Source: Candidatus Omnitrophota bacterium (GTDB lineage: Bacteria > Omnitrophota > Gorgyraeia > JAHJTE01). From it: a stretch of DNA of 64,000 bases. The position numbers and the translations under genes are program-made. Location: positions 135,674 through 199,673 of the forward strand of contig JAHJTE010000003.1 in the NCBI GenBank assembly GCA_018830005.1, read 5' to 3'. The first letter of the stretch is position 1, and each line of letters opens with the position of its first letter. Below the pieces are notes generated by a model. The model did not search any database. It worked only from the letters and a program-made list of their open reading frames with translations, and had not been told where the DNA came from. Shown here piece after piece: positions 24,075 through 55,977 of the stretch.

Positions 24075-24084
24075 GGTGGAACAA

Positions 24085-31734: not shown

Positions 31735-31736
31735 GC

Positions 31737-38710: not shown

Positions 38711-38829
38711 AAATCAACCTCTTTGTATATCGTGTGTTATATTTACTCGCCTCTCACTTATTAATAGCTATAAATTATTTCAGCATTAATAAACTTTGGC
38801 AGTGTTTGTAGCCTTTCTTAATATTTCTT

Positions 38830-40398
38830 CTATAACTGTAATTTGAAAAGTTTCTTTAGTACTTTCTGCACGGTTTCTTGATAATCTTCAATTTGGCGTT
38901 CATCAATTCCTACTGTGGCGCGTTCATGAATTAGTTTACATCGCAATCCGTAGTAGTGGTTAATCTTTTTCCAGAGTTTCTCGCTAATCTTGACGTATTT
39001 TTTTATTTCTTTCTCAACTTTATGCCTTGCATTAAACAGGTCTAACAATTCTCTGTCCGTATAGTGATGTCTCGATTCATTGACCAAATACTCTTTAAAT
39101 GCGATTTCTAGGGTGCTATCTAATAATATCAGGCAGATGCGGTTCTTTTGCTCTAGCTTTTGATGATAGATGATATCTACAGCAATCATTCCTTCATAAA
39201 GACCGCTTGTCCAAGGTTTATCCTTTGCAATCTTTCGATTAGCTTGCTTAATAATGTCACTATATCTTAAGTTGGCTTTAGGCAAAGGGGGGAGATATGA
39301 CCTTTTTGCCTCCGGAAAATTGTCTATCTTCTTTGCCACAATATGTCCGGAAGGATATTTAAAAACTTTGTCTGACCAGTCGCCCTCCCATCTCCTAGAA
39401 AGTGACGCAAAATCTTTCACAACCTGAACAAGCCAACCACGCAACGCAACAAAAATTGGATGATTTTGATTAATCCCTGACTTACTGCTATTCCATGGCA
39501 TTAAGTCAGCCTCTCCTTTAAGCGAAACAATGACTCTGGTGAGGGAAATGCTGGGATGCGGTCGTCCTGCTAATCCTTTTGTAAAACCAACTTCATAATT
39601 TTTGAGAGCTTTCGCAATTAATCGGTCATTACAGTAGAAGTAGACCCCATACTCACCACTAGCAGGACTTGACTCCATGCTGAGACCAGCAAGAACCTCA
39701 ACTTTAACAACCTTACCTTCTGCGCTTGGTAAATCACCATGATACCTATGTGGTAAATACTCCGGAGGGTATGCCCAATTTTCAAAGATATGTGGTTTTA
39801 AAACGTCTGCATTAAGCTGAATTTTTAACTGCTTATTAAATAAAAATTTGGCGTAGGTAGCTTCTAAATGCTCTCTAAGGTATTTGAGACTACCATCGGT
39901 TATTACAAAACGAAGTTTATGAAGTTCAATTCTAGTAGTTCCTTCAGTTATCTGATCAACCTCATAAACAGGTAGCTCCCAATCATCATTATCAAGCCAA
40001 GTTTCATCAAATTCTATACTATAAGTTTTTTCTTTAGCATACCGAGTTATTATTCGTATATCCTGAGACAAAGCTACAACCGCCCTTTTGCTTCCAACTC
40101 CAAAAATCCCTATTGTCTCATCTGTTGGCAAATTACTAGTCTGCCCGGGCCCAACAATTAAATTAAGTTCGGATTTCTTAATTCCCCCGGCACTATCAGA
40201 AACATTAATCAACTGCCTGTCTTTATCAATATCTATATGGATTTCTAAAGACCTCTTTCTGCCGATTTTCACCCATATATCAAGGGCATTATCAATTAGC
40301 TCACAAATGGAGCGATTAAGGTCATAATCCGCAATAATGGAAAGAAATATCCTTTTAGAAGGGACAGCATCTATCGTATCTACTTCTTTCTTTACCAA
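38830..40398 (-). CDS. GHKL-family ATPase (MORC/paraMORC-like)
   Basis: Bergerat-fold motifs ELIDNALD, SDSAGGI and GIFGVGSKRA. Confidence 0.55.
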   Translation of the reverse strand: MVKKEVDTIDAVPSKRIFLSIIADYDLNRSICELIDNALDIWVKIGRKRSLEIHIDIDKDRQLINVSDSAGGIKKSELNLIVGPGQTSNLPTDETIGIFGVGSKRAVVALSQDIRIITRYAKEKTYSIEFDETWLDNDDWELPVYEVDQITEGTTRIELHKLRFVITDGSLKYLREHLEATYAKFLFNKQLKIQLNADVLKPHIFENWAYPPEYLPHRYHGDLPSAEGKVVKVEVLAGLSMESSPASGEYGVYFYCNDRLIAKALKNYEVGFTKGLAGRPHPSISLTRVIVSLKGEADLMPWNSSKSGINQNHPIFVALRGWLVQVVKDFASLSRRWEGDWSDKVFKYPSGHIVAKKIDNFPEAKRSYLPPLPKANLRYSDIIKQANRKIAKDKPWTSGLYEGMIAVDIIYHQKLEQKNRICLILLDSTLEIAFKEYLVNESRHHYTDRELLDLFNARHKVEKEIKKYVKISEKLWKKINHYYGLRCKLIHERATVGIDERQIEDYQETVQKVLKKLFKLQL

Positions 40399-40407
40399 AT
40401 TAACCCC

Positions 40408-40590
40408 CTATGAAACAATGTTACTCCTGCTCTTAATAAAGCTTTCCAAGTCCTCGGGATAAACCCGCCACCTGCCAATCTTTGTTGCCTTTATCTGCTT
40501 GGCCTTGATTAGGTCGCGCACCCATTTCTCGGTTACGTCCAGTTTCTTAGAGACTTGTTTTACTGTGAAATATTTTTTTAGGTCATCCAT
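40408..40590 (-). CDS. xis: excisionase/AlpA-family HTH protein
   Basis: 60 aa: FTVKQVSKKLDVTEKWVRDLIKAKQIKATKIGRWRVYPEDL. Confidence 0.5.
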   Translation of the reverse strand: MDDLKKYFTVKQVSKKLDVTEKWVRDLIKAKQIKATKIGRWRVYPEDLESFIKSRSNIVS

Positions 40591-40690
40591 AGCTTTGTGG
40601 CTCCGGAATTGAGGCAGATTATGAGATATTGACGACTTATCTTTACTTATTATTACTTCCTATTGTACAGGAAGCGCTTTAAAAGTCAAC

Positions 40691-40718
40691 AGAATACTGA
40701 AAACAGAATACTGAAAAC
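40691..40718. repeat. exact 14-bp tandem duplication (agaatactgaaaac x2) upstream of xis
   Basis: Direct reading. Confidence 0.7.
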
Positions 40719-40729
40719 ACGATTTGCTA

Positions 40730-41140
40730 TTTGTTTCTATAGCTTCATTTATATAATACCACACCCAGAAACAAACCCAACCAATCACAAATCAAGCACT
40801 TACGCAGTAGAAACAAATCTACCACCGTAGAAACAATACCCACCACCAACATCGCCCCCAAAAATAAACCCATATAATAAAAAGGGGCAACACACAAAAC
40901 GCCTTCAAGCCCATAAGGCAAACAAGCACCAACCCAAAAAAGGCTACATCACCCCAGCCCCCCTAGAATAATGCCATATAAGATAAAGGGGGCACATCTA
41001 AACGCCCACCCAAAAATAAAACTCCACATAAAAACAAGGAGGGCCAAGAATACAGCGCCAGCAAGCCGAAAGGCAATACAGCGCATCCAGACCACCAAAC
41101 AAAAAAGAAGAAACAATGAAAGGAAAAAAAGGAAGCAAAC
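40730..41140. repeat. A+C-rich noncoding region with two sets of direct repeats (iteron-like)
   Basis: 20-bp tandem gtagaaacaaatctaccacc / gtagaaacaatacccaccacc at 40807-40847. 33-bp imperfect repeat at 40870-40903 and 40974-41006. No ORF. Confidence 0.5.
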
Positions 41141-41413
41141 CTAAATCAAAAGCTCCTCCTCCTTAAGAACCAACCTCGAAACCTCCCTGAACTCCGCCTG
41201 CTCAGCCAACCCAACCAGCTCAGCCTTCAGAAGCTCCTGCTCCCACCCCGTGAGAACCGCACATACACCGTATGACGCCAGGACACCCTGCAAATCATCC
41301 AAGACATCCTCAACATCAAACCAGACATCAAACTGCCTCACATACTCCACGACACGATACACCAGCCACGAACCAGACTCACTGACAACTTTGTCTTTAC
41401 ACATATCGAACAC
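41141..41413 (-). CDS. hypothetical protein
   Basis: ORF. Confidence 0.3.
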   Translation of the reverse strand: MFDMCKDKVVSESGSWLVYRVVEYVRQFDVWFDVEDVLDDLQGVLASYGVCAVLTGWEQELLKAELVGLAEQAEFREVSRLVLKEEELLI

Positions 41414-41616
41414 CTCCGAATTTCTTTTTTATAGCGCCAGCTATTAGAAAAAAGAAATGGAGGACACCCAACCAAACAAAAGCCACCACAAACTATGTAA
41501 TGTTTTAGACGGCCCCTAAGGGAAAAGGTTTAGGAACGGATTTTGCGAACGAGCAAAAGCCTCCATAAACCTTTAGGCGTGAAAAAAACACAAGAAATCA
41601 GACACAGAAAAAAAGA

Positions 41617-41811
41617 TTAAAACAGAAAAGAAAAATACTCCTGCATCTCACCCAGAAGCTGCTTTCCCTGCTCACTTTCAAATTCAACAAACTCAATCTC
41701 TTTCCGTTCATAATCCACTTTCCTAAACTGCATAAGCACAGCATCAACAGTGAAACCCCTAAAAGTCGGCAACTGAAACGGAACATTTTGTAACATCCTC
41801 AACACCTCCAA
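41617..41811 (-). CDS. hypothetical protein
   Basis: ORF. Confidence 0.25.
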   Translation of the reverse strand: MEVLRMLQNVPFQLPTFRGFTVDAVLMQFRKVDYERKEIEFVEFESEQGKQLLGEMQEYFSFLF

Positions 41812-41829
41812 GCAAAAAAAGAGGGGGAT

Positions 41830-42177
41830 TCACCCCTCAACATCACCGTCCTGCTCTCCCTCCTTCAGCACCAAGTACTCAAACGCCTTCTCGAGAACAA
41901 GAACAGCCTTGGGCAAATCATTCACTCCTAAAGAACTCGAACTCTGCCAATCACCATTGTTATCCTTGTAACGCCTCTGCAACGTCACAGAACAATACTC
42001 AACATCTTTGCCCTTAATGTTCCTGGCATTCTTCCAGACAGTAGCACTTATAGCTCCTGTGCTAAACTTCTTCTCAGGCTTGTTTCCATCTCCCATTTTC
42101 ATAAACTCCATTCCAGCTCTTCTAAACGAGAGCAAGAATTTTATTTCTGCCAAGAAATAATAAAATTCGTGCGACAA
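41830..42177 (-). CDS. hypothetical protein
   Basis: ORF. Confidence 0.3.
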   Translation of the reverse strand: MSHEFYYFLAEIKFLLSFRRAGMEFMKMGDGNKPEKKFSTGAISATVWKNARNIKGKDVEYCSVTLQRRYKDNNGDWQSSSSLGVNDLPKAVLVLEKAFEYLVLKEGEQDGDVEG

Positions 42178-42220
42178 AACTTAAAAAGGAAAAAATAATT
42201 AGAAAAAAGGAATAAGGCAA

Positions 42221-42514
42221 TCAGTACCGGGAATAATACCGTTTATCTGACAGAAGCTTCTTCTCAACACTGCCAACACCTTCAGCTTGGCGGGAACCGG
42301 CCTTGCACTCATCAATAATCTTATCAATAGTGTCGCCCCTCAAGTCAGCCAAGCTAGTGTTCGGCAGCCGAAGACACATCTCCTCAGATATTGAATACGT
42401 CTGCCTCGCATAAACGATACCGCTACCATAAGAACTACTGGAATCGCCAACAGGAATCCTCCTGATGCGAGTAACTTTCTTCTTCCGCCACACCCTCAAC
42501 AACGCGTCAGTCAT
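42221..42514 (-). CDS. hypothetical protein
   Basis: ORF. Confidence 0.3.
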   Translation of the reverse strand: MTDALLRVWRKKKVTRIRRIPVGDSSSSYGSGIVYARQTYSISEEMCLRLPNTSLADLRGDTIDKIIDECKAGSRQAEGVGSVEKKLLSDKRYYSRY

Positions 42515-42795
42515 CTATAGCCACCTCGATAATCAGGGCCATCATAAAGATTAACAGGAACGTCAGCACACCTCATAGTCTTCTCAGCTTCTTTCCAGGC
42601 ACCTTTCAGCAAACTGTCAAAATAACTGGCAGGATCCCACGCAATCCTATTATCCTCAGACTCCTTCAGCCAAGCATCAAGGTCAACAATATTCCTCAAA
42701 ATGTCATAATCCCCATTAGGAAAAACCCTGGCGTAAACCACGCCAGGCCTTTCCAACTCCTTCACGGAATGTTTTACACAGTCATTAATCCCCAT
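42511..42795 (-). CDS. hypothetical protein
   Basis: ORF, overlaps the previous gene. Confidence 0.3.
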   Translation of the reverse strand: MGINDCVKHSVKELERPGVVYARVFPNGDYDILRNIVDLDAWLKESEDNRIAWDPASYFDSLLKGAWKEAEKTMRCADVPVNLYDGPDYRGGYR

Positions 42796-42910
42796 GGCAC
42801 CAAAAAAACAAGAACATGCTTAAAAAGGTTACGAAAGAAAATCCGAAAGATTTATGCACAAAAACAATAAGCCTTAAATATCCCGCTAGTATTTCAGGAA
42901 ATATTAGAAA

Positions 42911-43324
42911 ATGTATAAGAAAAGCAATTACGGCATAGGATTTTCGCCACTAGAAAAAGCAACCTACAGTGTTGGACTTAGAGCATACGCTCCGGAATTA
43001 CAGAGTCAAGAACTCTTATTTGCTAGAGTCAAGAATCCGCAGGCATACGAGTCAATCCTAGCAAAACACTACAACAAATTTTTGGACTACATAAAAGGCA
43101 TGACAAGATACAACCCAACCAGCAACACGGAAGAGACAAGCACGCTGGAAAAAAACATCACAAACTACCATTCCGACATCAAAGACAAGAAGCAAATAGA
43201 CCCGCGAACTCATTACGCATTCCCCCTCGGCCCAGAAGCAGCAATAATCGTAGACATCGGACTAAACCCAACCGGACTAAAAACAAACAGCCTCGGCAAT
43301 ATAGAACAAATTCGACTTAAATAA
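42911..43324 (+). CDS. hypothetical protein
   Basis: ORF. Confidence 0.3.
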   Translation: MYKKSNYGIGFSPLEKATYSVGLRAYAPELQSQELLFARVKNPQAYESILAKHYNKFLDYIKGMTRYNPTSNTEETSTLEKNITNYHSDIKDKKQIDPRTHYAFPLGPEAAIIVDIGLNPTGLKTNSLGNIEQIRLK

Positions 43325-43448
43325 TAAAGCAAGTTTCTTTTTCTACCCGAAACTGAATTACAAACCCGATTGCGCACTAAGAACGGTCTGGATACCCGCG
43401 AGAAGATGTGGTATCATAATAGCCAAAATATAAAAGTGGACAAAAGAT

Positions 43449-43745
43449 ATGCCTGACTATTACGATAAATATTCATATTTAGAAAAAGCTTTCAAAAACG
43501 ACACTCGCTCATTAGATCTCCTATACGAATTCCACGACAAGTCACTAGACTACTTCAAATGTACACTAAAAACAAAATTCGACTATATCAAAGAACAGGA
43601 ACTCCTTGATAAGATAGAAATATCCATCGGCAACTTGAACGATTATATTCGGCAAACCAACATAGCAATAAAACAGCTGCCAACGCCAAACAAACCCGGC
43701 AAAATAATGCGTTTCACGCAAGAATGTTATCGGCAGGAAGAATAA
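43449..43745 (+). CDS. hypothetical protein
   Basis: ORF. Confidence 0.3.
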   Translation: MPDYYDKYSYLEKAFKNDTRSLDLLYEFHDKSLDYFKCTLKTKFDYIKEQELLDKIEISIGNLNDYIRQTNIAIKQLPTPNKPGKIMRFTQECYRQEE

Positions 43746-43757
43746 AAGGGATTCCGT

Positions 43758-44360
43758 ATGGAAGAATCGCAATACGCTAAAGACTACGAATTTGCTCAAC
43801 ACTGCATAAAAAACAGTGACTTTGATGAATTCTACAAACGCTACAAAGCAAACATAGAAAAAACTATTAAAAAAAGATTGTACGGAGAAATGGCAACCTA
43901 CCTAGAAGACATAAGCCAAGAAATCATAATGTACCTACTCTACAAAGGCGGACTTGGAAAATATCAAGGCAGATCTCGACTAAGTACATGGCTGTTCGTA
44001 GTAGTAAGGGGACGCACCATAGACTTCATCAGAAACATCACGAGACACAAAGAATCATCATATGACCCGGTAGTACTTAATGGCAAAGCAAAAAAAGACA
44101 GGTCAGTAACTCGCAAACTCATAGAAGAAGAAACCACAAGCCTTGTCTGGAAAACACTAAAAGAAATGCGAGATACGTGGAATCTTCAAAAAACGGTATT
44201 TATGGAAAAACACCACCTCGAACGACTCACATATAAACAAATCGGGCAGATGTTCAACATAAAACAGACAACAGTATACAACCACATACTCAAAGCAGAA
44301 GATAAGTTTAGAGAACTGTTTAGCGACCTAAATCCGGATTACGAGGAGGAACAAATATGA
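43758..44360 (+). CDS. sigma-70 family (ECF-type) RNA polymerase sigma factor
   Basis: Region 2 (STWLFVVVRGRTIDFIR). Region 4 HTH (LTYKQIGQMFNIKQTTVYNHILKA). Confidence 0.55.
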   Translation: MEESQYAKDYEFAQHCIKNSDFDEFYKRYKANIEKTIKKRLYGEMATYLEDISQEIIMYLLYKGGLGKYQGRSRLSTWLFVVVRGRTIDFIRNITRHKESSYDPVVLNGKAKKDRSVTRKLIEEETTSLVWKTLKEMRDTWNLQKTVFMEKHHLERLTYKQIGQMFNIKQTTVYNHILKAEDKFRELFSDLNPDYEEEQI

Positions 44361-45070
44361 ATAAATTATGCAAAATAAGCGGGCACCTCATACGATTCTA
44401 CCCCCATCTCCCCGAGAAGCTAATGCAACACATTCACAGCTGTGCGGAATGCAGCGAAAAACTAAAAACAATAAAGCTATTTGCAAAACTGCAAGGAGAC
44501 AAACCAGACTACGCCAAGATAGAAAAAGCACCCACCTGCCCCGATGACAACACCTTCGCAGCACTCCTTGACGGACAACTTCAAGGGAAAGAATTGCAAA
44601 AAATGGAAAGCCACCTCCTCAACTGCGCCCAGTGCTTCCACATAGCCGCAGAATACATCAAAGAACACCAACCAGCAACAGAAACCATAGAGCAACTGCT
44701 GGCAGATGCAGAACCAAGCCTTGAGGCAGCAGCTCTCTTGGACAAAGTTCGCGGGCTAAGCGAAGCATTCATCAACAAGTATTATCCGGCTATGCAGGAA
44801 TGGTTTGATGGCGCATTCGGAGCGATAAGAGAAAGTATCTTGGCAGGAGAACAACTGGCAACAGTTCCAGTAAGGGGAATGGGTTTCTCTCAGAATAAGC
44901 AACAAATAATTGCGAAGACAGTGCTGATAATGCAGGAAGTCCTCAAAGAAGCCAAGCCGGACTGGACACGCGAGCAATACAAGAAATGTATCGAAAAACA
45001 GTGCAAAAAACTCAAGGCCGACAGAAAACTGAAAAACGCTCTACTGGAATATTGTGAGCACCTTAAATAA
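44357..45070 (+). CDS. putative zf-HC2 anti-sigma factor
   Basis: HxxxCxxC motifs (HIHSCAECSEKL, HLLNCAQCFH). Immediately follows the sigma gene and overlaps it. Confidence 0.4.
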   Translation: MNKLCKISGHLIRFYPHLPEKLMQHIHSCAECSEKLKTIKLFAKLQGDKPDYAKIEKAPTCPDDNTFAALLDGQLQGKELQKMESHLLNCAQCFHIAAEYIKEHQPATETIEQLLADAEPSLEAAALLDKVRGLSEAFINKYYPAMQEWFDGAFGAIRESILAGEQLATVPVRGMGFSQNKQQIIAKTVLIMQEVLKEAKPDWTREQYKKCIEKQCKKLKADRKLKNALLEYCEHLK

Positions 45071-45076
45071 AAAACC

Positions 45077-47893
45077 ATGTCTATTTCAGTTGAAACATTC
45101 AACTTCCTTTATTGCACCATTCTTTTCATTTTAATCGCATGGCATGGATTCTCAAAAAAATCCGTAACTATCGACCTTAGCGAATCTTCAATAAGAATTA
45201 TCCTAGCCTATATCGTAACGGGGCTTATAATGACAAGCTCGCTCATAACCATTGCCCATTCCACCTTCATTCTCAACATGCGAATACCCACGAATCACCG
45301 ACTGCTTCTAGCCGCGCTACCATGCCTCATATTAGTTACAACCCTGCTTGTCAGCTTAGTAAGGCTGTCAAAATATCTCAAAAAAATTATACGGACATCC
45401 AAAGATTACGAAGACGCAGAAATAGTTGAAAAAGCCAATGACCTATCCGATGCGATAGGCTTGCCAAAAGCACCAACCATCCTCTTTGCAAAAGAAAAAA
45501 ACCGAACACCCGAAGTCCAATCTTACCCGTTACTCAGGAAAAGCTTTGTGATATTCCCCTCTAACTTACGACAATACATCGAAAGGTTTATGACAAAAGA
45601 AACCGGGATAGAACCCACAGATGCAAATTGGAAAAAACACTATGAAACATTTCGCGATTTTATAATTCTTCACGAGCTATCACACATAAAAAACAAGGAC
45701 ACCAGCTACTGGACACACTCATCGTCGCTTATAACTCAAAGTATCCTCTGGTTTCTGGCGTCTGTGATACTCTCTGCTCACGTATATTTTGGCAAAATAA
45801 ATAAGTTTGGCATCTCACCCCTCACTTCTATATCAGGCATAGCATTACTCTTTTTGCTAACAGCATCATTTAGACGAACAAGGGAATACCTGTCTGACGC
45901 CTCAGCCATGCTCTACCTCTCTTATAGTAAAAGCAACTTGTTGTCCCAAAAAAAGCCGGGCACAAACAAAACGCTAATAGAAACTTTCCTGAATTGGCAC
46001 GAACACCAACCCGAAACAGTAAGCCCTTCCCGCGGACCCGGCTTTTCCTCACTAAACAGGCTGGCACACCCCTCACACAAGAAGCGCTCGGAAGCTATAA
46101 CCAAACAAGAGTATATATCACCCAAAATCCCATACCCGACCAACGAATCAATTATTTTCATAGCAATACTAAATGTCATATTAACATATGCCCTGCTTGA
46201 AGGCATTGGACAATTCTTCACTCATTTCATGCCATTAAAAAGTGTTATCGACGGCTGGGCGGGCTCAACAACCTATATGATAGCCTTCATTACACCACCC
46301 TTATTAAGCGCCATGTTCTTAACCCTCCCAATAAAGAACACCATAAGCCCACTAAATAACATGAATACGTACCTTAAACCAATCGTTGTTAAAACGCTGA
46401 TTTTCACTGCAATCTCAACACTCACATTTATATTTTTAGGAAACACTACAAGAGCAATGGCATCTATTGCTGAATCCCGAGGCCCATATTTCTTCTGGTT
46501 CCTGACATCTTTCAGCGCGCTGACAGTCATAGCTGCCACACTTCTTCTTACATTAATAATATCCTTAGTTAACGAAACAAATCCTGCATCAAAAAAACTT
46601 CTTAAAACGCTATTAGCAGTAACACCCATTGTAATCGCATTCATAGTGGCGCCACCCCTGCTGCTGGGATTTCTTTTCAAACCCAATTATTTCCTTGCAA
46701 TATTCTCATTCGTAATCGCATATGGCATATGGCTACGCATACCTCCCAAGAAAAATATCATCATATGGGATGACCGCTCTTTTTACCCAAAAATATTCAA
46801 CCGCTCGATATGCTGCGAAGCTAAAGGACACGGCATATTATCCAGGCTTCGCTTTGCCGCACTTATAGCCCTTTTCGACTTCAGCATCCCTCTACTTTTA
46901 TGCATACCAATATATTTATTCCTCAACACCATTCTAGACAGCAACACACTCGAATTCACGAGAAACCTAATTAGCGCATCAAGATCATCAGAGCTGTACT
47001 CTTCCAAACAATTTATTATTCTCGCAGTTTTCTTCATAGGTGCTTTTTGGACGCTGTATGCCCGGGAAAAAGACCACATTCCATCCAAGATAGTTAACTG
47101 CTCTGAAATGATAGGCATATCCGAACTCGTCCAACACAAAGATTTCTCAAGAATCTATAAAACAATTCTTGCCAAGACCAAAAACCACTTGGAAAAAAAT
47201 AAATTCGTTGAATTCCCAAACAGCAACTTAGAAACCGCATATATCGCGTTTTGCGCAACAAACATCATCAAGCATGACACACATGAAACATCCCTAATAA
47301 AAGAACAAACGACACATTTCCTGACCTCACTTTACAACAACAAAGGAGGCTTTGGCGCAGCAAAAGGCGGGGAGCCCAGGCTAAGGGAAACATACTACGC
47401 GGTAGAAATAATCAGCGTGCTCCAGACCCTGAAAAGCATCGACAAGGACAAAATATCAGAATGGATAATATCATGCCAGAATATTAATGACGGCAATTTT
47501 GTCACACCGTACTTCGGCCAGCCAAGCATAGAAGAAACATTCTACGCGATTAACACTCTAAACCGTCTTTCATCCCACATCCCAAACTATGAAAAATGCA
47601 AACAATGGCTCCTGACAACATGGCGGAAAAAAGCCGACATCGAAAACACCTTCTACCTGACAAGCGCTCTCCCGCAACTTGAGCCCCAATACATCGAAGA
47701 AATCACAAAAAAATATCTTCACATAAACAATGACCGTTTTTTCCGATTCCGCTACGACAAGGACTTAAGAAAAATACGCATGCACCTGCATATAGCACGC
47801 CAGTGCTATGGGCTTAATTCAGACGAATTCAAGCAGTTAACCAAAAACACAGAAGAAGAAATTGAGAAAATAATAGCGTCGTCCCAATTTTAG
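45077..47893 (+). CDS. polytopic membrane protein: M48/M56-like HExxH peptidase + C-terminal prenyltransferase/terpene-cyclase-type repeats
   Basis: HELSHIKNKD in a membrane context. More than 12 TM. C-terminal repeats GGFGAAKGGEPRLRETYYAVEII and NDGNFVTPYFGQPSIEETFYAINTL. Confidence 0.45.
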   Translation: MSISVETFNFLYCTILFILIAWHGFSKKSVTIDLSESSIRIILAYIVTGLIMTSSLITIAHSTFILNMRIPTNHRLLLAALPCLILVTTLLVSLVRLSKYLKKIIRTSKDYEDAEIVEKANDLSDAIGLPKAPTILFAKEKNRTPEVQSYPLLRKSFVIFPSNLRQYIERFMTKETGIEPTDANWKKHYETFRDFIILHELSHIKNKDTSYWTHSSSLITQSILWFLASVILSAHVYFGKINKFGISPLTSISGIALLFLLTASFRRTREYLSDASAMLYLSYSKSNLLSQKKPGTNKTLIETFLNWHEHQPETVSPSRGPGFSSLNRLAHPSHKKRSEAITKQEYISPKIPYPTNESIIFIAILNVILTYALLEGIGQFFTHFMPLKSVIDGWAGSTTYMIAFITPPLLSAMFLTLPIKNTISPLNNMNTYLKPIVVKTLIFTAISTLTFIFLGNTTRAMASIAESRGPYFFWFLTSFSALTVIAATLLLTLIISLVNETNPASKKLLKTLLAVTPIVIAFIVAPPLLLGFLFKPNYFLAIFSFVIAYGIWLRIPPKKNIIIWDDRSFYPKIFNRSICCEAKGHGILSRLRFAALIALFDFSIPLLLCIPIYLFLNTILDSNTLEFTRNLISASRSSELYSSKQFIILAVFFIGAFWTLYAREKDHIPSKIVNCSEMIGISELVQHKDFSRIYKTILAKTKNHLEKNKFVEFPNSNLETAYIAFCATNIIKHDTHETSLIKEQTTHFLTSLYNNKGGFGAAKGGEPRLRETYYAVEIISVLQTLKSIDKDKISEWIISCQNINDGNFVTPYFGQPSIEETFYAINTLNRLSSHIPNYEKCKQWLLTTWRKKADIENTFYLTSALPQLEPQYIEEITKKYLHINNDRFFRFRYDKDLRKIRMHLHIARQCYGLNSDEFKQLTKNTEEEIEKIIASSQF

Positions 47894-47901
47894 CTGGTGA
47901 A

Positions 47902-48585
47902 TCACAAAAGCGACATTAAATCATTCCTCATAAGCTTGCAAACCTCTATAATCCTGTTAGTAAACCGCAAACGATTATCTTTCACGTAAACAGCTTCTAC
48001 AACAAGATCCTCTGCTGCAGCAATACCAGAAGCCCTAACATCATGCCTATCACACTGATACAAAGAAACTATCCGTTTCTTGTCATAACTGTTTACGGGC
48101 AACGATAAGTGCTCAACACTCTTACCCGCGATGTACTCACGTAAAGCTTTTACTCTAGAATCCCACCGCACTGCTTCATCTTTAGTCAAACGCACAATCC
48201 TTACTTCAAACAAATCAATATCCTTTAGTAATAACTTAATCGCGTCTTCCCCATTACCTTTCCTTATTAATACCGGAATGCGCCTATAAAGAACCACCAT
48301 CTCACCCCAAAGCTTCTTAAAAAGCTTTTTTTCAAAATACAAAGATTTACAACCAGGCTCAGGCTCGTTTTCAGCAAAATGAATATGCGGACTGAAATAG
48401 TGATTAAAATACCTGATAAGTCCTCTAATAAAACTCTCATATTTAAGCTCGAGCAGGAAATCCTTATTCTTGTAACTCCCATCCCACTCCTGAATAAGTA
48501 CCGCTAACTGCTTCTCAACCTTCTCTATAAGCCGCACTTCTTCCGGACTCAACTCGCGTCTCCTGCCAAACCATCCCATATTCAT
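47902..48585 (-). CDS. hypothetical protein
   Basis: 227 aa ORF. Confidence 0.3.
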   Translation of the reverse strand: MNMGWFGRRRELSPEEVRLIEKVEKQLAVLIQEWDGSYKNKDFLLELKYESFIRGLIRYFNHYFSPHIHFAENEPEPGCKSLYFEKKLFKKLWGEMVVLYRRIPVLIRKGNGEDAIKLLLKDIDLFEVRIVRLTKDEAVRWDSRVKALREYIAGKSVEHLSLPVNSYDKKRIVSLYQCDRHDVRASGIAAAEDLVVEAVYVKDNRLRFTNRIIEVCKLMRNDLMSLL

Positions 48586-49728: not shown

Positions 49729-50148
49729 ATGGAAAAAAATAATGAGCTTGAAAAAATCATGCAGGAATCAATGGGACAGGATCTGAGCGAAAACACAATA
49801 AACACCATTCCTGTAGACGCTTATGTCCAGCAAAACTTCATTGGAAGCTCATTCAGAGACAAAGAAAAAACCGAAGCCGACGGCTCCAGCAACCGCACAC
49901 GAAACTTTTTCATAAAAAAATTTCACTGCGGATGCTACACCGGCACCATCAAGACCTACGGAAGATACTGCGACAACCCCGTGCCACCAGGCAGAAAAAC
50001 GTGGAAAGAACCCTACCACATCCTGTGCGTCAACTGCGCCAAAATCCTCGAATGCGAAGGGTGCGGAAAAACCGGCGACAGGATATGCTTTACCAAGCGC
50101 GGTCAGAAATGGTACTGCCTTGACTGCCTCAGAACGCTAAGACTATAA
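49729..50148 (+). CDS. Cys-rich zinc-binding protein
   Basis: CGCYTG...CVNCAKILECEGCG...CLDC. Confidence 0.3.
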   Translation: MEKNNELEKIMQESMGQDLSENTINTIPVDAYVQQNFIGSSFRDKEKTEADGSSNRTRNFFIKKFHCGCYTGTIKTYGRYCDNPVPPGRKTWKEPYHILCVNCAKILECEGCGKTGDRICFTKRGQKWYCLDCLRTLRL

Positions 50149-50165
50149 GAAAGGAGAAAAAAATT

Positions 50166-52289
50166 GTGAAGGTAAGCCCCAGATTCCAACAAGCGCGGAA
50201 CACAATAGAATTCTTCGGCCTGCAAAACAACGAGGTCATACTTCGCCTTTTCAAAACTTTTGCAAGAAACCAGCGCAACACCACAGCATACCATACGCTA
50301 ATGCGCGCAATCCACAACCACCCTTATGTAATGAACAAACAGATCAGCCAAAGCCCATTCGCCACGCCACCACCCCCCACAACACAGCAAGGCAAAATGC
50401 GCATCGGCTTAGACGAACACAACAGGCCATACCACCTTGAAATAAAAAATTTCACCAAACACCTCCTGATAACAGGAACAACAGGCTTTGGAAAAACATC
50501 ATTTTTCCAAAACACAATGACCTTCCTGCACAAAATGGGAACAAAGTTCTTGGCGATTGACATAAAGAAAGACACGCGCGAACTGCTCCACCGCATTCCA
50601 ATGCTCATCCTGCGCTTCAAAGAAAACACCAACTTCAAACTCAACCCCCTACAGCGACTGCCAGGCGTAAGCCAGATAGAACAGGACGACCTCTTTATCA
50701 GACTGCTCGCAGAAACCACATTCTTGGCTGAAGGCTCCACAAGCCTATTGCTTGACTCTCTCTGCGAACTACGAAACAAAAAAGGCGCCATAACCGTCTT
50801 TGACCTTTACCAATCAATCGAAGAAAAAGGAAAAAAATTCCGCACATTAAGACAGCTGGGATGGCGGGACAGCTGCCTCCGAAGCCTAAAAACACTAGTC
50901 CTATCATTCGGGCCAATGCTAGACTGCGCAGAAGGACTTCCCATCCACCGCATAATCCAAGAACACAACGTCGTAGCAGAGCTTGACTCGGCAGGCTCAT
51001 ACAAAAGCTTCTTCGGCACCCTCCTCCCAGCCTACTACCTGAAATGGAAAATCAGCAACAACATCAAAAGCCCGTTTCACGCAAACTTCTGCGACGAAGG
51101 AAACATGCTGCTAAGCAAAACCATAGAGTTCCACAGCGTCACAAAAAAGCTAAGCATCCTCACACTCATAGAGCTTGGCAGGGAATTCCAAGAATCATGG
51201 TTCATCTCAAGCCAAGAACCAAAAAAGCTGTCAGAAAGCGTGAAGTGCAACACAGCCACAAAAATCCTCCTTCCCCTGGAAGACGGGCCCAGCAGAAATT
51301 ACATGAGCGATACCGTAGGCATGACACAAACACAAACAATACACACAACCCTGTTCGTCACAGGACAGTCAGTCGTAAAACAAGAAGGACAAAAACCACA
51401 CAAAATAACCCTGGACCCCCCTCCTGAAAATGCCGGGCTCACAGAATTCAGCGACCAAGAAGCCGAACAAGAAAGCCAACCCATCATAAACCAGTACCCC
51501 ACAAAAATGAAAAAACAGACAATAACTATCGAGGAATTCAAGCCGGCACAAAAGTGCCCCAGATGCGGAACCGGAGAACTAATAATTAAAGAAGGAAAAT
51601 TTGGAAAATTCATAGCCTGCAATCAGTACCCAAACTGCAAACACACGGAGCAACTCAAAAACGAACAGCCACAAGAACTCACACAACAACAAAAAGAACT
51701 ATTATGGCACATCAAACTACACCCCGAACTTTCCAAAACACAACACTACAAAAGCCTCAATCTCTCAGCCGGAAAAGCAGACAACCTTATGAAAAAAATG
51801 CGTCACCTCGTAAGAGAAATCACCATTCCCACACAACAGCGCGGCAGACAACCAATCCTACTCGCGCTCACCAAACAGGCATGCCAACAGCTCGGCGTAG
51901 AACAGCCTCGCACCAGAGGAGCAGAAATAGAACACGACTTCCACGTAGCCCGCTACGTCGCACAGCTCAAAAAAGCGGGACACAAAGCAGAGCCGAACTT
52001 CAAGCTCAAAGATAAAGAAGCAGACATCGGCATAATGCTCCCCAACGGAGAAATAATCGCAGTAGAAATAAGCACGACAACAACGCCCGAATGGGAAATG
52101 CAACAAGCCATCAAAAACATCAAAGCAGGATTTGACAAAACAATAATCATAAACACCAACCCTGACAAATCTCAGGAGTTTAACATAAAAGCGCAGTTTC
52201 AGCTAAGCCCCGAACAAGAAAGCAAAATAACCATATCGCAGCTGATACCAGACATAACAGAACTGATACGAAAGGAGCAAGAAACGTGA
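50166..52289 (+). CDS. FtsK/HerA-superfamily ATPase fused to topoisomerase-type C4 zinc ribbon and C-terminal nuclease-like domain, paralog 2
   Basis: Walker A LITGTTGFGKTSF. CPRCGTGELIIKEGKFGKFIACNQYPNCKH zinc ribbon. C-terminal EIEHDFHV...DIGIML...AVEIST. GTG start with SD aaggag. Confidence 0.55.
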   Translation: MKVSPRFQQARNTIEFFGLQNNEVILRLFKTFARNQRNTTAYHTLMRAIHNHPYVMNKQISQSPFATPPPPTTQQGKMRIGLDEHNRPYHLEIKNFTKHLLITGTTGFGKTSFFQNTMTFLHKMGTKFLAIDIKKDTRELLHRIPMLILRFKENTNFKLNPLQRLPGVSQIEQDDLFIRLLAETTFLAEGSTSLLLDSLCELRNKKGAITVFDLYQSIEEKGKKFRTLRQLGWRDSCLRSLKTLVLSFGPMLDCAEGLPIHRIIQEHNVVAELDSAGSYKSFFGTLLPAYYLKWKISNNIKSPFHANFCDEGNMLLSKTIEFHSVTKKLSILTLIELGREFQESWFISSQEPKKLSESVKCNTATKILLPLEDGPSRNYMSDTVGMTQTQTIHTTLFVTGQSVVKQEGQKPHKITLDPPPENAGLTEFSDQEAEQESQPIINQYPTKMKKQTITIEEFKPAQKCPRCGTGELIIKEGKFGKFIACNQYPNCKHTEQLKNEQPQELTQQQKELLWHIKLHPELSKTQHYKSLNLSAGKADNLMKKMRHLVREITIPTQQRGRQPILLALTKQACQQLGVEQPRTRGAEIEHDFHVARYVAQLKKAGHKAEPNFKLKDKEADIGIMLPNGEIIAVEISTTTTPEWEMQQAIKNIKAGFDKTIIINTNPDKSQEFNIKAQFQLSPEQESKITISQLIPDITELIRKEQET

Positions 52290-52558
52290 TAGATGACAAA
52301 AAATTACAGGACGAGCTGCTCGAACTGCTGACAGAACAGCAAATACCAGAAGAACTCAGATCCCACCCGCCACCATATGACTGGAAAAGCCTTCTCCGTC
52401 CCCTGGGAAAATTTGTGCTGGTAATCATCGGTATCTGCGCAGCCCCTTTTGTGGCGTCAATCATCATAGCAATAGTAACGCTCTGCCCCGTCATAGTTCC
52501 AATCTGGATACTGATGTACATTGCACAACAAAAAACCAATCCCACCAACAGGAGATAA
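52286..52558 (+). CDS. small membrane protein
   Basis: GTG start overlapping the previous stop (GTGA). 2 TM. Confidence 0.3.
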   Translation: MIDDKKLQDELLELLTEQQIPEELRSHPPPYDWKSLLRPLGKFVLVIIGICAAPFVASIIIAIVTLCPVIVPIWILMYIAQQKTNPTNRR

Positions 52559-52565
52559 AAAAATC

Positions 52566-53396
52566 ATGGAAGAAACTGAAGGAATGGAAAACATGGAAAC
52601 ACCTGAAGAAATGGAAGGCATTGAAGAAGCAGAAAACATCTCCCTTGATGCAACAAAAGAAGCTGACGAACTTATCGAACAGTCAATGCAGGAAGGCATC
52701 TCCGAATTCAGCGCGGACGCAACAAAAGATACCATAGCTAATATTATGCACGAAGAAGGAATTCCGGAAGAAAAAATTGAAGCACTAACAGAAAAAGGAC
52801 ACGAGCTGCTCAGCAAAGAACCAGCAAAACACGAGGTCTCTGAAGAAAAAGAAATACAAGGACTAAAACAAACCTCTGGCCGTGAAGGATCGCCAAAGCC
52901 ATACAACTATCCATCAGAACCCGGGAAAAAAGCTCAGCACAACATTCCTTATCCTTTTGGCAAGAACACAGAAGAAATCAGCCAAAGAGAACGGCTTGAA
53001 GCCATGAAAGAAGGGCTTGAAGAATTCCTAGAAACACCCCACAAGACACCACATCAGGAAGAAGCGGTAATTGAAAAACTGGAAGAAATACAACAGCAAC
53101 TAAGCGGGCTGCCACCAGACCCGCCAGAACCAGAAGAGCCAGAAATTGAAGACGTAACAGACAAACAAGCACAAGCTGAAGGATGGCAAGACGCAAGAGA
53201 AAGAAAAACATGGCTGGACGGCACAGAAAGCGTAAAACAAATACCTAAAAACGTATACAAACCCGCCAAGCTCAATACCATCAAAGGCATGTACAGCCAA
53301 GGCTTAGAAAACAAAGGTAAAGTGGGATATGACGGATTCGGAGAACTAATGGACGACCTAGACGACACAATAAATGACATGGGAACAATGTTCTAA
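52566..53396 (+). CDS. highly acidic Glu-rich protein (candidate DNA mimic)
   Basis: MEETEGMENMETPEEMEGIEE... SD aggag. Confidence 0.35.
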   Translation: MEETEGMENMETPEEMEGIEEAENISLDATKEADELIEQSMQEGISEFSADATKDTIANIMHEEGIPEEKIEALTEKGHELLSKEPAKHEVSEEKEIQGLKQTSGREGSPKPYNYPSEPGKKAQHNIPYPFGKNTEEISQRERLEAMKEGLEEFLETPHKTPHQEEAVIEKLEEIQQQLSGLPPDPPEPEEPEIEDVTDKQAQAEGWQDARERKTWLDGTESVKQIPKNVYKPAKLNTIKGMYSQGLENKGKVGYDGFGELMDDLDDTINDMGTMF

Positions 53397-53430
53397 TAAT
53401 TTTCAACACTTAAACAATAAGGAGGACGTT

Positions 53431-53685: not shown

Positions 53686-53714
53686 ATCCAAAACCGAAAA
53701 AAGGGGCCGGAACA

Positions 53715-53900: not shown

Positions 53901-53953
53901 CAAAATGTCTTATTTGGACTACCATATGATACAGTTAATAACAGGAAAGAATT

Positions 53954-55606
53954 ATGAAAGACAAAAAGTGCGCCCTATATATTCGAGTTTCTACCCCCCG
54001 CCAGGCAAGCGTTGAAGACGGCAGCCTCGACGCCCAGGAATCCAAGCTAAAAGCCTACGTCAACTACGAAAACACATCCAAACAAGACAAGTGGAAAATA
54101 AGCGGAACCTACCGAGAAGAAGGACGCAGTGCCAAAGACCTCAAGCGCCCACAATTCCAGCGCATGATGCAAGACATCAACGACGGCAAAATAAACACCA
54201 TAGTCGTCTGGAAAATCGACAGGCTCACCCGCAGCCTCAAAGACTTCTCCAACCTATGGGAAACATTCAAAGACCAAGGCATACAACTCATCAGCCTAAA
54301 CGAAAAATTCGACACAAGCACAGCAATCGGCAGAGCAATGCTCACCATCATCCTCGTCTTCGCTCAACTCGAACGCGAGCAAACCGGAGAAAGAACCTCA
54401 GCCACAATGCAATACCGCGCAGAACAAGGACTCTGGAACGGAGGCAGAATACTCGGCTACGACCTTGATAAAGAAAAAAAGGGCGTGCTCAAAATCAACA
54501 AAGAACAATCCAAACTGATAAACAAAGCTTTCGAGCTATGCATGCAAAAAGGCAGCGCAGGCCAAACCCAACAAATACTTAACGAACTCGGCCACAGAAT
54601 GCCAACATACGAATCACGCAGAGGCAAAAAACACGGCAATACCCTCTTCACAAAACAAGCAGTAATAAGACTTCTGACAAACTCCGCCTATATTGGAAAA
54701 ATCAGTTGGGCCGGCAAACTATACAAAGGAATACAGAAGCCCATCATAGATGCAAAAACATTCGATAAAGTCCAGACAATACTAGGAAAGAACCGTAAAA
54801 CAAGAACCAATGAAAGAGCACCCAAGCAACACGTCTACATCCTCCAGGGCATTCTCAAGTGCGGCAAGTGCGGCTCAATGCTCACTCCAAAAAGCGGCAA
54901 GAACGGCTCCGGACAGCCATACCATTATTATCAATGCACCCAGAACAGCCACATAGGAAAACAAGCGTGCAAAGCCAAATATGTTCCTGCTAAAAGCATT
55001 GAAGACTTTGTTCTCGAAAGAGTCCGCGAGCTGTCAACCAAGCAAGAAGAAATTGACGCAATGATAGAAAGGGCTAGCAAGGCAGGAAACAAACAGATAA
55101 CCCAGCTTGAGGAGAATAAAAAAAGGCTTCTGGCAAAACTTCAAGAAGTCAAAGGCAGGCTCGGAAAGATAGTGGACGCCATAGAGGCCGGACAGGCATT
55201 CAGAACATTCTCTGAACGCGTCAAAACTCTTGAAGAAGAACGCGAAAGCCTAGAAAAAAAGATAGAAGAAACTTCTTTCGAAATAGAAAAAGCCAGTCAG
55301 GAAATACTGAGCGCAGAAACAATGAAGCAAAACTTCCAACAGCTCAGGGACGTAATAGATAAAGCTAATCCTCAGCAACTGAAAGACCTGCTCTACAACA
55401 TCATAGAAGTCATCGAATACCACGAATCAACAGACGACAAATCAACAGGACACCTCAAAATAAGCTACTTCGAACAACCCAACCTCACCATACCCGACCC
55501 CAAAAATACAAAGAGCGAACAACACCCAAATGGGGCATTGTTCGCTCAGAGTATCAAATGGCTCCCCCGCGAGGACTCGAACCTCGGACATGGTGGTTAC
55601 AAGTGA
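53954..55606 (+). CDS. large serine recombinase (resolvase-domain integrase)
   Basis: N-terminal resolvase catalytic domain (YIRVSTPRQ...VWKIDRLTRS). Recombinase domain and zinc ribbon (CGKCGSML...YYQC). Coiled coil. The 3' end overlaps the tRNA 3' exon. Confidence 0.8.
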   Translation: MKDKKCALYIRVSTPRQASVEDGSLDAQESKLKAYVNYENTSKQDKWKISGTYREEGRSAKDLKRPQFQRMMQDINDGKINTIVVWKIDRLTRSLKDFSNLWETFKDQGIQLISLNEKFDTSTAIGRAMLTIILVFAQLEREQTGERTSATMQYRAEQGLWNGGRILGYDLDKEKKGVLKINKEQSKLINKAFELCMQKGSAGQTQQILNELGHRMPTYESRRGKKHGNTLFTKQAVIRLLTNSAYIGKISWAGKLYKGIQKPIIDAKTFDKVQTILGKNRKTRTNERAPKQHVYILQGILKCGKCGSMLTPKSGKNGSGQPYHYYQCTQNSHIGKQACKAKYVPAKSIEDFVLERVRELSTKQEEIDAMIERASKAGNKQITQLEENKKRLLAKLQEVKGRLGKIVDAIEAGQAFRTFSERVKTLEEERESLEKKIEETSFEIEKASQEILSAETMKQNFQQLRDVIDKANPQQLKDLLYNIIEVIEYHESTDDKSTGHLKISYFEQPNLTIPDPKNTKSEQHPNGALFAQSIKWLPREDSNLGHGGYK

Positions 55607-55886: not shown

Positions 55887-55977
55887 ATTTTATTCATCAT
55901 TCATATTTAGTATTTCGCTTTAAAAGAACGTTCTACTATTTTATCTGAATGCCCTATTTAGTCAAGAAGAAACCTTC

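Follow-up and report, generated by a model that had tools for sequence, protein, structure and literature searches.

A three-gene cassette carried by an integrated mobile element of a Candidatus Omnitrophota bacterium may well act as a proteolytic transcription switch, one in which a membrane metalloprotease inactivates the regulator encoded beside it and thereby frees a sigma factor. The cassette lies at positions 43758 to 47893 of a 64,000-nucleotide stretch of contig JAHJTE010000003.1, which was analyzed as a whole and is referred to here as the window. Its three closely packed open reading frames (ORFs), all on the plus strand, encode a putative extracytoplasmic function (ECF) sigma factor of 200 amino acids (aa), a putative zinc-finger anti-sigma factor of 237 aa, and a 938-aa protein that joins a predicted M48 zinc metalloprotease to a C-terminal alpha-alpha toroid (Table 1). 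An initial annotation of the same DNA had described overlapping sigma and anti-sigma genes followed by the 938-aa protein, and this layout was recovered at exactly the same coordinates, with a 4-bp overlap (ATGA) at the sigma stop.

We propose that a soluble, tandem zinc-finger anti-sigma factor holds the ECF sigma factor inactive, as knowledge of these families would suggest, and that a 13-helix inner-membrane M48 protease is positioned with both its active site and its toroid facing the cytoplasm, as predicted. Upon a membrane-borne or cytoplasmic cue, the protease would cleave or otherwise inactivate the anti-sigma factor, probably by recognizing its C-terminal part, where it resembles the N-terminal core of regulators encoded next to other members of the protease family. 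The freed sigma factor would then transcribe element genes. The toroid may be a noncatalytic binding module that either docks the substrate or binds a ligand gating the protease. Most other family members would follow the same logic without a sigma factor, since they combine the same protease chassis with a regulator made of the shared core and an OmpR-type winged helix. Proteases of this family are nearly always encoded beside a transcription regulator and therefore probably turn on element genes through its cleavage.

Regulators encoded beside the protease

All ORFs of the loci fetched for the protease family were clustered to find recurrent neighbors. One partner family recurs directly downstream of the protease gene, codirectional with it and often abutting or overlapping it (L015-17/31, L018/19, L026, L030, L032/33, and L034), and in L021/22 the partner gene is two genes away from the protease. 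Counting distinct loci, a member of this family or a zf-HC2 protein stands next to the protease in 10 of 14. The four exceptions are L001, which has a frameshifted copy; L023 and L024, which have less than 0.7 kb of flank; and L025, where a 440-aa downstream gene does not match the hidden Markov model (HMM) of the partner family. The usual neighbor appears to be a soluble transcription factor in which a winged helix accompanies an N-terminal core specific to the family, as evidenced by matches to Pfam Trans_reg_C in four of nine partners (best E value, 7.9e-5) and by the alignment of the partner profile with the whole OmpR/PhoB-type effector domains of DrrD (E = 0.0016), SaeR (E = 0.006 to 0.009), and CovR (E = 0.07). 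The initial annotation had called the cassette a proteolytic signaling system of the BlaR1 style; the family-wide adjacency of transcription regulators speaks for the first half of that description, and the external sensing implied by the second half has to be given up on the predicted topology discussed below.

Partner genes were also seen in a different setting. In L028 and L029 (positions 10001-10930 in both), a winged-helix partner gene occurs without an M48-toroid gene, a 496-aa gene lies upstream on the opposite strand, and the surrounding element has a HerA, RemA-like, HTH_17, and integrase backbone as in related elements.

The two kinds of regulator are bridged by the L021 partner. This 230-aa protein is a secure family member (E = 1.7e-18 against an HMM built without it), has no winged helix, and begins with an HxxxCxxC motif (HMLACTRC), with which the second zinc motif of the window anti-sigma factor aligns. 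It is matched by an HMM of three anti-sigma factors with an E value of 3.2e-4 among 1658 ORFs, and in a BLASTP alignment with the window anti-sigma factor (E = 3e-4), the zinc motif and the stretch LS..FI.KYYPA...FD are collinear. In hhalign, aa 131-156 of the anti-sigma factor, a helix that reads VRGLSEAFINKYYPAMQEWFDGAFGA, match the partner core over 25 to 26 columns (P = 0.0025 to 0.005). The partner HMM also ranks the window anti-sigma factor first among 191 window ORFs, with an E value of 0.0011 (0.016 when L021 is left out of the model), and the three anti-sigma factors are its best nonmember matches among the 1658 ORFs (E = 0.14 to 0.32). Taken together, these comparisons are moderate evidence for a core shared by the winged-helix partners and the C-terminal half of the anti-sigma factor, and likewise for the fusion of one protease-associated module to two alternative transcriptional output domains, an anti-sigma domain in one case and a winged helix in the other. 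Proteases of this family are generally paired with a regulator, and the sigma/anti-sigma pair is the form that this takes in one clade.

Profile matches assign the 200-aa protein to the ECF (group 4) sigma factors. NCBIfam TIGR02937 (sigma70-ECF) matches aa 21-186 of 200 with 60.4 bits against a cutoff of 42.9, and the sigma2 and sigma4 regions are represented by Pfam Sigma70_r2 (aa 42-95) and Sigma70_r4_2 (aa 151-181), both slightly under cutoff. The 237-aa protein is, on similar grounds, a ZAS-type anti-sigma factor: it is encoded directly downstream of the sigma factor, has HxxxCxxC motifs with upstream Cys and His residues, and matches Pfam zf-HC2 (PF13490) at aa 69-93 with 25.5 bits against a cutoff of 22.2. 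Both HxxxCxxC motifs counted in the initial annotation are present, at aa 25 and aa 86. Since no hydrophobic segment is evident when its translation is read by eye, the protein is treated as soluble. A metagenome scan with the anti-sigma alignment gave no matches.

Among the elements compared, the cassette is conserved in three that form one clade: the window, L020, and L027. L020 (24 kb) is syntenic with window positions 40408-46081 as far as the end of L020, and its sigma factor, anti-sigma factor (P0157), and protease fragment are 56%, 74 to 75%, and 74% identical to those of the window, respectively. The module of L027 comprises, in order, a 206-aa sigma factor, a 238-aa zf-HC2 protein, a 911-aa M48-toroid protein, a convergent 243-aa gene, and an FtsK/Zn-ribbon ATPase; here the identities to the window are 65% for the sigma factor, 63% for the anti-sigma factor (P0160), and 32% for the protease. 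The order of sigma and anti-sigma genes is identical in L020 and L027. Ratios of nonsynonymous to synonymous substitution rates (dN/dS) are 0.12 to 0.17 for the sigma factor and 0.12 to 0.20 for the anti-sigma factor, and both are under purifying selection. The full-length proteases of the window and L027 (5196-7931) are reciprocal best matches, with 331 and 305 bits and no more than 175 bits to any other member; since they are nevertheless only 32% identical, the protease has diverged in place, much faster than its neighbors, and diversifying selection is a possible cause. With Pfam, NCBIfam, and an HMM of the three sigma factors, neither a sigma nor an anti-sigma domain was detected in the neighbors of distant members of the protease family.

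As for hosts, L020 carries the NCBI protein name Desulfobacteraceae bacterium and the window that of Candidatus Omnitrophica, so the two are assigned to different phyla, and they share 75% nucleotide identity over the cassette. This mismatch reflects either a broad host range or misbinning of mobile-element contigs.

Architecture of the M48-toroid protein

The 938-aa protein matches Pfam M48 (PF01435) at aa 152-343 with 33.1 bits against a cutoff of 20.3, and it falls below the cutoff for M56 (PF05569; 13.8 bits against 31). Residues H199, E200, H203, D208, R269, E270, D274, P332, and R337, with H331 in the same motif, are invariant or at least 90% conserved across 36 sequences, and the full signature in the family reads LLHELSHIKNxD ... 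RxRExLADARA ... HPxxxxRxxxL. The closest protease by sequence is HtpX (NCBIfam HtpX, E = 4.3e-4; PDB entry 3cqb, E = 1e-3), and the HtpX fragment 3cqb is the sole protease among the matches of the family profile to PDB sequences. Judged by profile and by its HExxH, downstream Glu, and HPxxxxR elements, the protein is an M48 metalloprotease with predicted catalytic activity. The initial annotation had described a BlaR1/M56-like HExxH peptidase; the peptidase itself is upheld, in that the HExxH, which might have lain in a noncatalytic context, sits in a complete and family-invariant M48 signature, and the M56 assignment is replaced by an HtpX-like M48 one.

Relatives were found by an exhaustive HMMER scan of 1.84 billion representative sequences, which gave 308 matches. 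Word-indexed searches, whether with the single protein or with a 36-sequence alignment, retrieved the 938-aa protein alone, under the NCBI name "M48 family metalloprotease." Among the matches listed, at least 36 representatives of clusters at 50% identity have the identical design: 908 to 1000 aa in length, with the HExxH at about aa 156-214, 10 to 14 hydrophobic segments of which the last ends at about aa 600-700, and a soluble tail of about 270 to 300 aa. Overall, they are 15 to 20% identical to the 938-aa query. All 36 match both Pfam M48 and Pfam Prenyltrans; the only further recurrent Pfam match is M56, in 29 of the 36, where it is subthreshold or weak (best E value, 1.8e-10). The clusters are all metagenomic, rare (1 to 3 sequences per cluster), and uncharacterized, they lie on integrase- and HerA-bearing elements, and their database names go no further than "hypothetical protein" or "Zn-dependent protease with chaperone function." Fusions of M48 or M56 proteases with assorted domains are common. 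A search of the full-text literature found no paper on the M48-toroid fusion. It is, then, an undescribed but recurrent family and more than a chance juxtaposition. The first reading of this DNA had presented the combination as one not seen described, which agrees with the searchable literature, where no member is characterized or discussed; with at least 36 clusters, it is not a one-off.

Other routes to relatives were less productive. A scan of contigs with a generic HELSH pattern returned mostly ordinary M48 genes and one genuine relative (L001), a metagenome scan from the P0009 subclade contributed three more useful loci, and a fold search of the viral database BFVD gave only weak matches, to giant-virus M48 peptidases. 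Family proteases also occur in pairs or beside M48-like paralogues. For instance, L001 (1-5117) holds two head-to-head copies, one of them broken by frameshifts, followed by a gene with a PadR-like motif (by eye, from the translation); in L004 (16-7149) two long M48-like genes precede the family member; and in L026 (2315-4276) a 653-aa M48-like gene lies upstream.

Family-averaged hydropathy places 13 transmembrane (TM) segments in the protein, at aa 3-22, 42-65, 76-91, a hairpin at 224-261, 361-378, 400-417, 439-460, 476-498, 514-532, 534-553, 594-615, and 642-657; the initial count of more than 12 TM helices was therefore accurate. Short loops rich in lysine and arginine (mean density about 0.15 to 0.17; aa 23-41, 418-438, 499-513, and 554-593) alternate without exception with short loops poor in these residues (mean density 0.06 to 0.09; aa 66-75, 379-399, 461-475, and 616-641). 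This alternation indicates that the N terminus is outside and that both catalytic loops and the C-terminal toroid are inside. The predicted topology is thus N-out with 13 TM segments and C-in, with a cytoplasmic toroid beside the active site. Because the toroid would be inside and the periplasmic loops are all 26 residues or shorter, the 938-aa protein seems to have no external sensor domain, and its active site, its toroid, and the soluble anti-sigma factor are predicted to share one compartment. On this point, the BlaR1-style sensor domain of the initial annotation is contradicted, since the toroid is predicted to lie in the cytoplasm, on the side of the active site, and hence not to be an extracellular sensor.

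AlphaFold run on the single sequence gave a predicted local distance difference test score (pLDDT) of 38, which was unusable, and an AlphaFold2 (AF2) model based on the family alignment was used instead. Its mean pLDDT is 74 and its predicted TM-score (pTM) is 0.80; most residues of the M48 core and the toroid have pLDDT values of 80 to 96. The secondary structure of this model has eight helices between the protease domain and the toroid, in agreement with the hydropathy analysis.

The C-terminal domain matches Pfam Prenyltrans (PF00432) at aa 685-847 with 55.6 bits (cutoff, 26.5) and contains the repeats GGFG...ETYYA and DGNF...ETFYA. Against PDB sequences, the single protein matches the beta subunits of RabGGTase (E = 4e-10) and FTase (E = 8e-5), and the family profile matches them at 4.5e-29 and about 2e-21, respectively, with terpene cyclases at about 1e-9. 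In a Foldseek search of the PDB, the top 41 matches all belong to beta chains of protein prenyltransferases, and C3d and terpene cyclases come next; the scores are modest (E about 1.5e-3; TM-score of 0.45 to 0.51 on the target). The prenyltransferase-type repeats noted at first are therefore borne out by Pfam, by PDB sequence profiles, and by Foldseek on the AF2 model, and membership of the toroid in the protein-prenyltransferase branch is confirmed as far as profiles and a predicted structure can place it.

The same comparisons point away from an intact enzyme. The toroid is about 270 aa long and aligns collinearly only with residues 16-167, the N-terminal half, of RabGGTase beta. The Zn2+ ligands of RabGGTase beta (Asp238, Cys240, and His290) are not conserved, and PDVCYSWW, a zinc-ligand stretch, can be aligned only off-register, with the family repeat LEdTFyAL. 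In the distal half of the toroid, no D, C, or H column is more than 72% conserved and there is neither a D-x-C pattern nor a D-x-C...H triad; the conserved columns are those that shape the repeats (GGF, T, A, L, and W), and a His found in 86% of members is Ile793 here. Lacking conserved zinc ligands and matching no more than the N-terminal half of a beta subunit, the toroid is best regarded as a noncatalytic derivative. The initial idea that this domain is an isoprenoid- or lipid-binding fold used as a sensor finds no support in the same two observations.

Weighing the switch against its alternatives

Several observations weigh against a proteolytic switch. The functional link between protease and regulator is drawn wholly from gene adjacency, and the partner family also exists without the protease, in L028 and L029. 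The stretch over which the C-terminal part of the anti-sigma factor resembles the partner core spans only about 25 residues, and when L021 is not there to link the two, the resemblance is weak (hhalign probability of 7 to 12%; E = 0.016 to 0.14). The fast divergence of the protease (32% identity, against 63 to 65% for its neighbors) is unusual for a dedicated enzyme-substrate pair and would fit a role in an arms race. The topology derives from the positive-inside rule only, and the eight-TM block has low confidence in the AF2 model (pLDDT about 45 to 60). In addition, scans for sigma-70 promoters and terminators gave results at the level of chance, and no ECF-type or sigma-dependent promoter was identified with them.

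Some of these observations would be explained if the M48-toroid protein were the output of the operon and not its input. The sigma and anti-sigma factors would then merely control the operon, and the protease would be a regulated effector that acts in superinfection exclusion, abortive infection or defense, degradation of host membrane proteins, or HtpX-like quality control of membrane proteins. ECF sigma operons commonly autoregulate and include effector genes; a protease that evolves faster than its neighbors, by the identities just given, behaves as conflict genes do; a large defense cargo adjoins the cassette on the element; the nearest solved protease relative by sequence, HtpX, is a quality-control enzyme; and the partner family can do without the protease. 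However, for ordinary regulators it would be unexpected that two structurally different kinds with a common core stay attached to the protease gene across members only 16 to 20% identical, no PADLOC match was obtained for any of the three proteins, and an effector role leaves the eight-TM block and the cytoplasmic toroid without a function. We consider this account, the main rival of the switch, possible, if rather improbable. The switch itself could also take a more specific form, in which proteins with the M48, eight-TM, and toroid design constitute a new class of inward-facing membrane sensor-proteases. Their toroid, at the cytoplasmic face of the membrane, would bind a polyprenyl or other isoprenoid lipid (undecaprenyl phosphate or diphosphate, for example, or a lipid-linked precursor of the envelope) and report the state of envelope synthesis or membrane stress, such that cleavage of the modular regulator times the switching on of element genes; as it stands, this proposal is speculative and unlikely to be right.

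Two further explanations give the toroid a role as a lipid-binding or lipid-attaching domain. In true BlaR1-type signaling, as the initial annotation had it, an external toroid would sense an isoprenoid or lipid and activate the cytoplasmic protease. Such a model draws on the homology of the toroid to lipid-binding enzymes, on the M56 (BlaR1) Pfam matches of 29 of the 36 members, and on the position of the HExxH at about aa 200 after three N-terminal TM helices, an arrangement that BlaR1 shares. It is disfavored because of topology: 13 segments with perfectly alternating lysine and arginine densities in the family average put the C terminus on the side of the catalytic loops, and AF2 likewise has eight helices between the protease domain and the toroid. 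The short periplasmic loops and the unconserved prenyltransferase zinc-binding residues add to these objections, and an external sensor is quite unlikely. A CaaX-like pathway of lipidation and processing is more improbable still, and by a wide measure we do not expect it to be correct. It would require the toroid to be an active protein prenyltransferase and the M48 domain to act like Ste24, trimming a prenylated anti-sigma factor or another neighbor. The eukaryotic CaaX protease Ste24 is an M48 enzyme (PMC2148179). The toroid is also nearest to protein prenyltransferase beta subunits and not to terpene cyclases, both domains are predicted to face the cytoplasm, as they do in eukaryotes, and the anti-sigma factor ends in ...YCEHLK in the window and ...YCQNLK in L027. 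This Cys is, however, at position -5 and not -4, and it is absent from the L020 homologue; together with the toroid's lack of Zn ligands, these facts led us to reject the CaaX idea. Moreover, only the N-terminal half of the beta subunit is collinear with the toroid, the winged-helix partners have no C-terminal Cys motif, the protease is nearer to HtpX than to Ste24, and PPTA (alpha-subunit) repeats had no match, and hence an alpha-subunit-like gene no candidate, among about 36 window proteins in a scan that was not exhaustive.

The mobile element, related systems, and significance

The cassette belongs to an integrated element that spans roughly 18 to 55.6 kb of the window (Table 1). That it is borne by a mobile element, as first annotated, is corroborated by an integrase, a serine recombinase, an HTH_17 gene, two HerA/FtsK ATPases, restriction and defense cargo, and a backbone that shares synteny with elements of unrelated contigs. 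The left flank, up to about 17.5 kb, holds transporters and radical-SAM genes, and from 56630 the right flank holds housekeeping genes (Memo/AMMECR1, spermidine synthase, RecR, and DnaX). No tRNA was found at the element borders.

Table 1. Cassette, domains, motifs, and element features by window position
Feature	Position	Strand	Remarks
HerA/FtsK-type ATPase	20070-21623	+	PHROG annotation: HerA/FtsK-type "terminase large subunit"
LemA-family protein	24076-24612	+	PHROG annotation: "virion structural protein"
Tyrosine integrase	27881-29359		
Restriction/defense cargo block	30208-40398	-	
Small backbone gene	40408..40590	-	71% identical to L020 HTH_17 (excisionase-like) gene; HTH_17 assigned via the L020 homologue
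137-aa ORF, first gene of plus-strand block	42911..43324	+	No Pfam match
ECF-type sigma-70 family sigma factor (putative)	43758..44360	+	200 aa; TIGR02937
Zinc-finger (ZAS-type) anti-sigma factor (putative)	44357..45070	+	237 aa; zf-HC2; 4-bp ATGA overlap with sigma stop
First Cys/His cluster of anti-sigma factor (C5, H10, H25-x3-C29-x2-C32)	44369..44452	+	All five residues invariant in three homologues
Second, canonical ZAS motif (C61 ... H86-x3-C90-x2-C93)	44537..44635	+	zf-HC2 match, aa 69-93; residues invariant in three homologues
Helix shared with N-terminal core of partner regulators, aa 131-156	44747..44824	+	hhalign, partner HMM, BLASTP; suggestive
Polytopic M48 zinc metalloprotease with C-terminal toroid (predicted)	45077..47893	+	938 aa; start 6 bp past anti-sigma stop
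M48 catalytic domain, predicted cytoplasmic, aa 100-355, with embedded TM hairpin at aa 224-261	45374..46141	+	Family conservation; pLDDT 85-95
HELSH, aa 199-203	45671-45685	+	Sole copy in the protein
REYLSDASA, aa 269-277	45881-45907	+	
HP....R, aa 331-337	within 45374..46141	+	In M48 domain
Eight-helix TM block, aa 356-660	46142..47056	+	No recognizable domain; family-averaged hydropathy
Alpha-alpha toroid, predicted cytoplasmic, aa 661-938	47057..47890	+	Prenyltransferase-beta-derived, without catalytic Zn ligands; profile, Foldseek
Convergent gene immediately after cassette	47902..48585	-	227 aa; no Pfam, PHROG, or PADLOC match
FtsK/HerA-type ATPase with topoisomerase-type zinc ribbon, backbone gene	50166..52289	+	Pfam Zn_ribbon_Top1, FtsK_SpoIIIE, TrwB
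Large serine recombinase, probable right end of element	53954..55606	+	Resolvase, Recombinase, and Zn_ribbon_recom domains

The cargo block encodes a DndE fused to a HerA-type ATPase, an SMC/RecF-like ATPase, an Mrr_N protein, a type I specificity (S) subunit, a 924-aa N6_Mtase+HSDR_N fusion, and a 522-aa HATPase_c_3 protein. L020 has a different type I restriction-modification set at the same backbone position, which marks this position as a swappable cargo slot; the small backbone gene next to it forms the left end of the synteny with L020. PADLOC found no defense-system match for the three cassette proteins or their neighbors.

At the head of the plus-strand block, the 137-aa ORF has a weak homologue at the equivalent position of L020 (48% identity over 46 aa), and a 132-aa gene occupies this position in L027. 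For a 98-aa ORF between it and the sigma gene (43449-43745, plus strand), neither a family match nor a counterpart in L020 or L027 was obtained, and this ORF may be lineage specific or not a gene. The convergent 227-aa gene after the cassette is kept at the equivalent position of L027 (243 aa; E about 1e-78). In elements of the winged-helix type, an unrelated convergent family (186 to 224 aa) without detectable homology is found there, such that the two are positional analogues; the 227-aa gene was therefore rejected as a family-wide third component, being conserved only within the sigma-type clade. Homologues of the zinc-ribbon ATPase at 50166..52289 lie downstream of family proteases in L016, L018, and L027.

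A motif, CTTTTCAGTG[CT]AA, occurs in the left arm of the element at window positions 18786, 20152, 22186, 25832, and 27272 (plus strand), in four exact copies and one with one mismatch. All copies have one orientation, and some are immediately upstream of ORF starts. This motif is a candidate element promoter or operator, possibly a target of the ECF sigma factor; it was not found in the related loci, which do not cover the left arm.

Other features of the element were noted in passing. The PHROG annotations of the LemA protein and the HerA-type ATPase hint at a nontailed virus rather than a conjugative element, with no capsid gene recognized, and a scan of IMG/VR found no relative, so that a viral nature was not supported by that route. 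Positions 50000-56000 show a very strong AT skew (0.33 to 0.44) and a GC content of up to 0.47, raised relative to the rest of the window, and the FtsK-like gene contains several long out-of-frame ORFs rich in R, K, T, and H.

Among known proteases, HtpX (M48B) is the best sequence match and has the arrangement of HExxH, TM hairpin, ExxAD, and HPxxxxR in common with the 938-aa protein. The active site of HtpX faces the cytoplasm. In contrast to the family described here, HtpX is about 290 aa long with four TM helices and no extra domains, is encoded on the chromosome without a paired regulator, and degrades misfolded membrane proteins. The toroid shares homologous alpha-alpha repeats with the beta subunits of RabGGTase, GGTase-III, and FTase, which are cytoplasmic as the toroid is predicted to be; it differs from them in its size (about 270 aa versus 330 to 440 aa), in its fusion to a membrane protease, and in the loss of a conserved Asp/Cys/His zinc site. 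Small metalloproteases also offer a parallel. ImmA/ImmR, of ICEBs1 and prophages, places a metalloprotease beside the regulator that it cleaves and forms a transcription switch of mobile elements. IrrE, which acts with DdrO and belongs to M78, is listed as a metalloprotease example in PMC7593790. Like the cassette proposed here, both systems have a metalloprotease gene beside a regulator and flip a transcription switch, be it of a mobile element or of a stress system; unlike it, ImmA and IrrE, of the M78/COG2856 type, are small and soluble, lack a membrane part and a toroid, and work without a sigma factor.

The sigma and anti-sigma genes resemble ZAS/ECF pairs such as RsrA-SigR, where the gene for an HxxxCxxC anti-sigma factor is translationally coupled to that of an ECF sigma factor. 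The proposed release of the sigma factor through destruction of the anti-sigma factor fits a general principle (PMC7593790). Known cases of regulated anti-sigma proteolysis are that of RseA by DegS/RseP and that of RsiW by PrsW/RasP. In those systems the anti-sigma factor is membrane anchored, whereas here it appears to be soluble, with two Zn motifs and a C-terminal extension, and the candidate protease is a cytoplasm-facing M48 enzyme of the same operon and not a site-1/site-2 cascade. The searchable literature describes no anti-sigma factor as a target of an M48 or M56 protease, and a full-text search found no paper that pairs the two.

BlaR1 and MecR1 are membrane zinc proteases that inactivate a cytosolic repressor, and the sensor of BlaR1 is extracellular (PMC7593790). 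They share with the 938-aa protein a polytopic membrane zinc metalloprotease, an HExxH in a cytoplasmic loop, and a gene beside that of a soluble transcription regulator, often on mobile elements. The differences are in the sensor, the partner, and the peptidase family: in place of an extracellular penicillin-binding (class D beta-lactamase-like) domain, a predicted cytoplasmic toroid comes after eight additional TM helices; an anti-sigma factor or an OmpR-type winged-helix protein takes the place of a BlaI/MecI (Penicillinase_R) repressor, with an ECF sigma factor and a zf-HC2 protein as the neighbors here; and the protein is above the M48 cutoff and below that of M56. We infer that the system is of the kind in which a membrane metalloprotease would regulate transcription by proteolysis of a regulator. 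Neither for the inward-facing, prenyltransferase-derived domain nor for the anti-sigma partner was a precedent found.

What the cassette means depends on which explanation is correct. If the protease is an effector under sigma control, then the cassette amounts to an ECF operon of the ordinary kind whose cargo protein is unusual. If the toroid gates the protease as a lipid sensor, then it would be the first protein-prenyltransferase fold to serve as a bacterial regulatory ligand sensor, and the protease would be the first M48 enzyme known to act on an anti-sigma factor. If the proteolytic switch that we propose is correct, then it would represent a new input-output design in regulated proteolysis, with an intracellular sensing or docking domain descended from eukaryote-type protein prenyltransferases and a substrate module exchanged between DNA-binding and anti-sigma domains. 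In addition, it would provide a first functional handle on at least 36 uncharacterized clusters and on the control circuitry of poorly known integrative elements in Omnitrophota, Planctomycetota, and other uncultured lineages.

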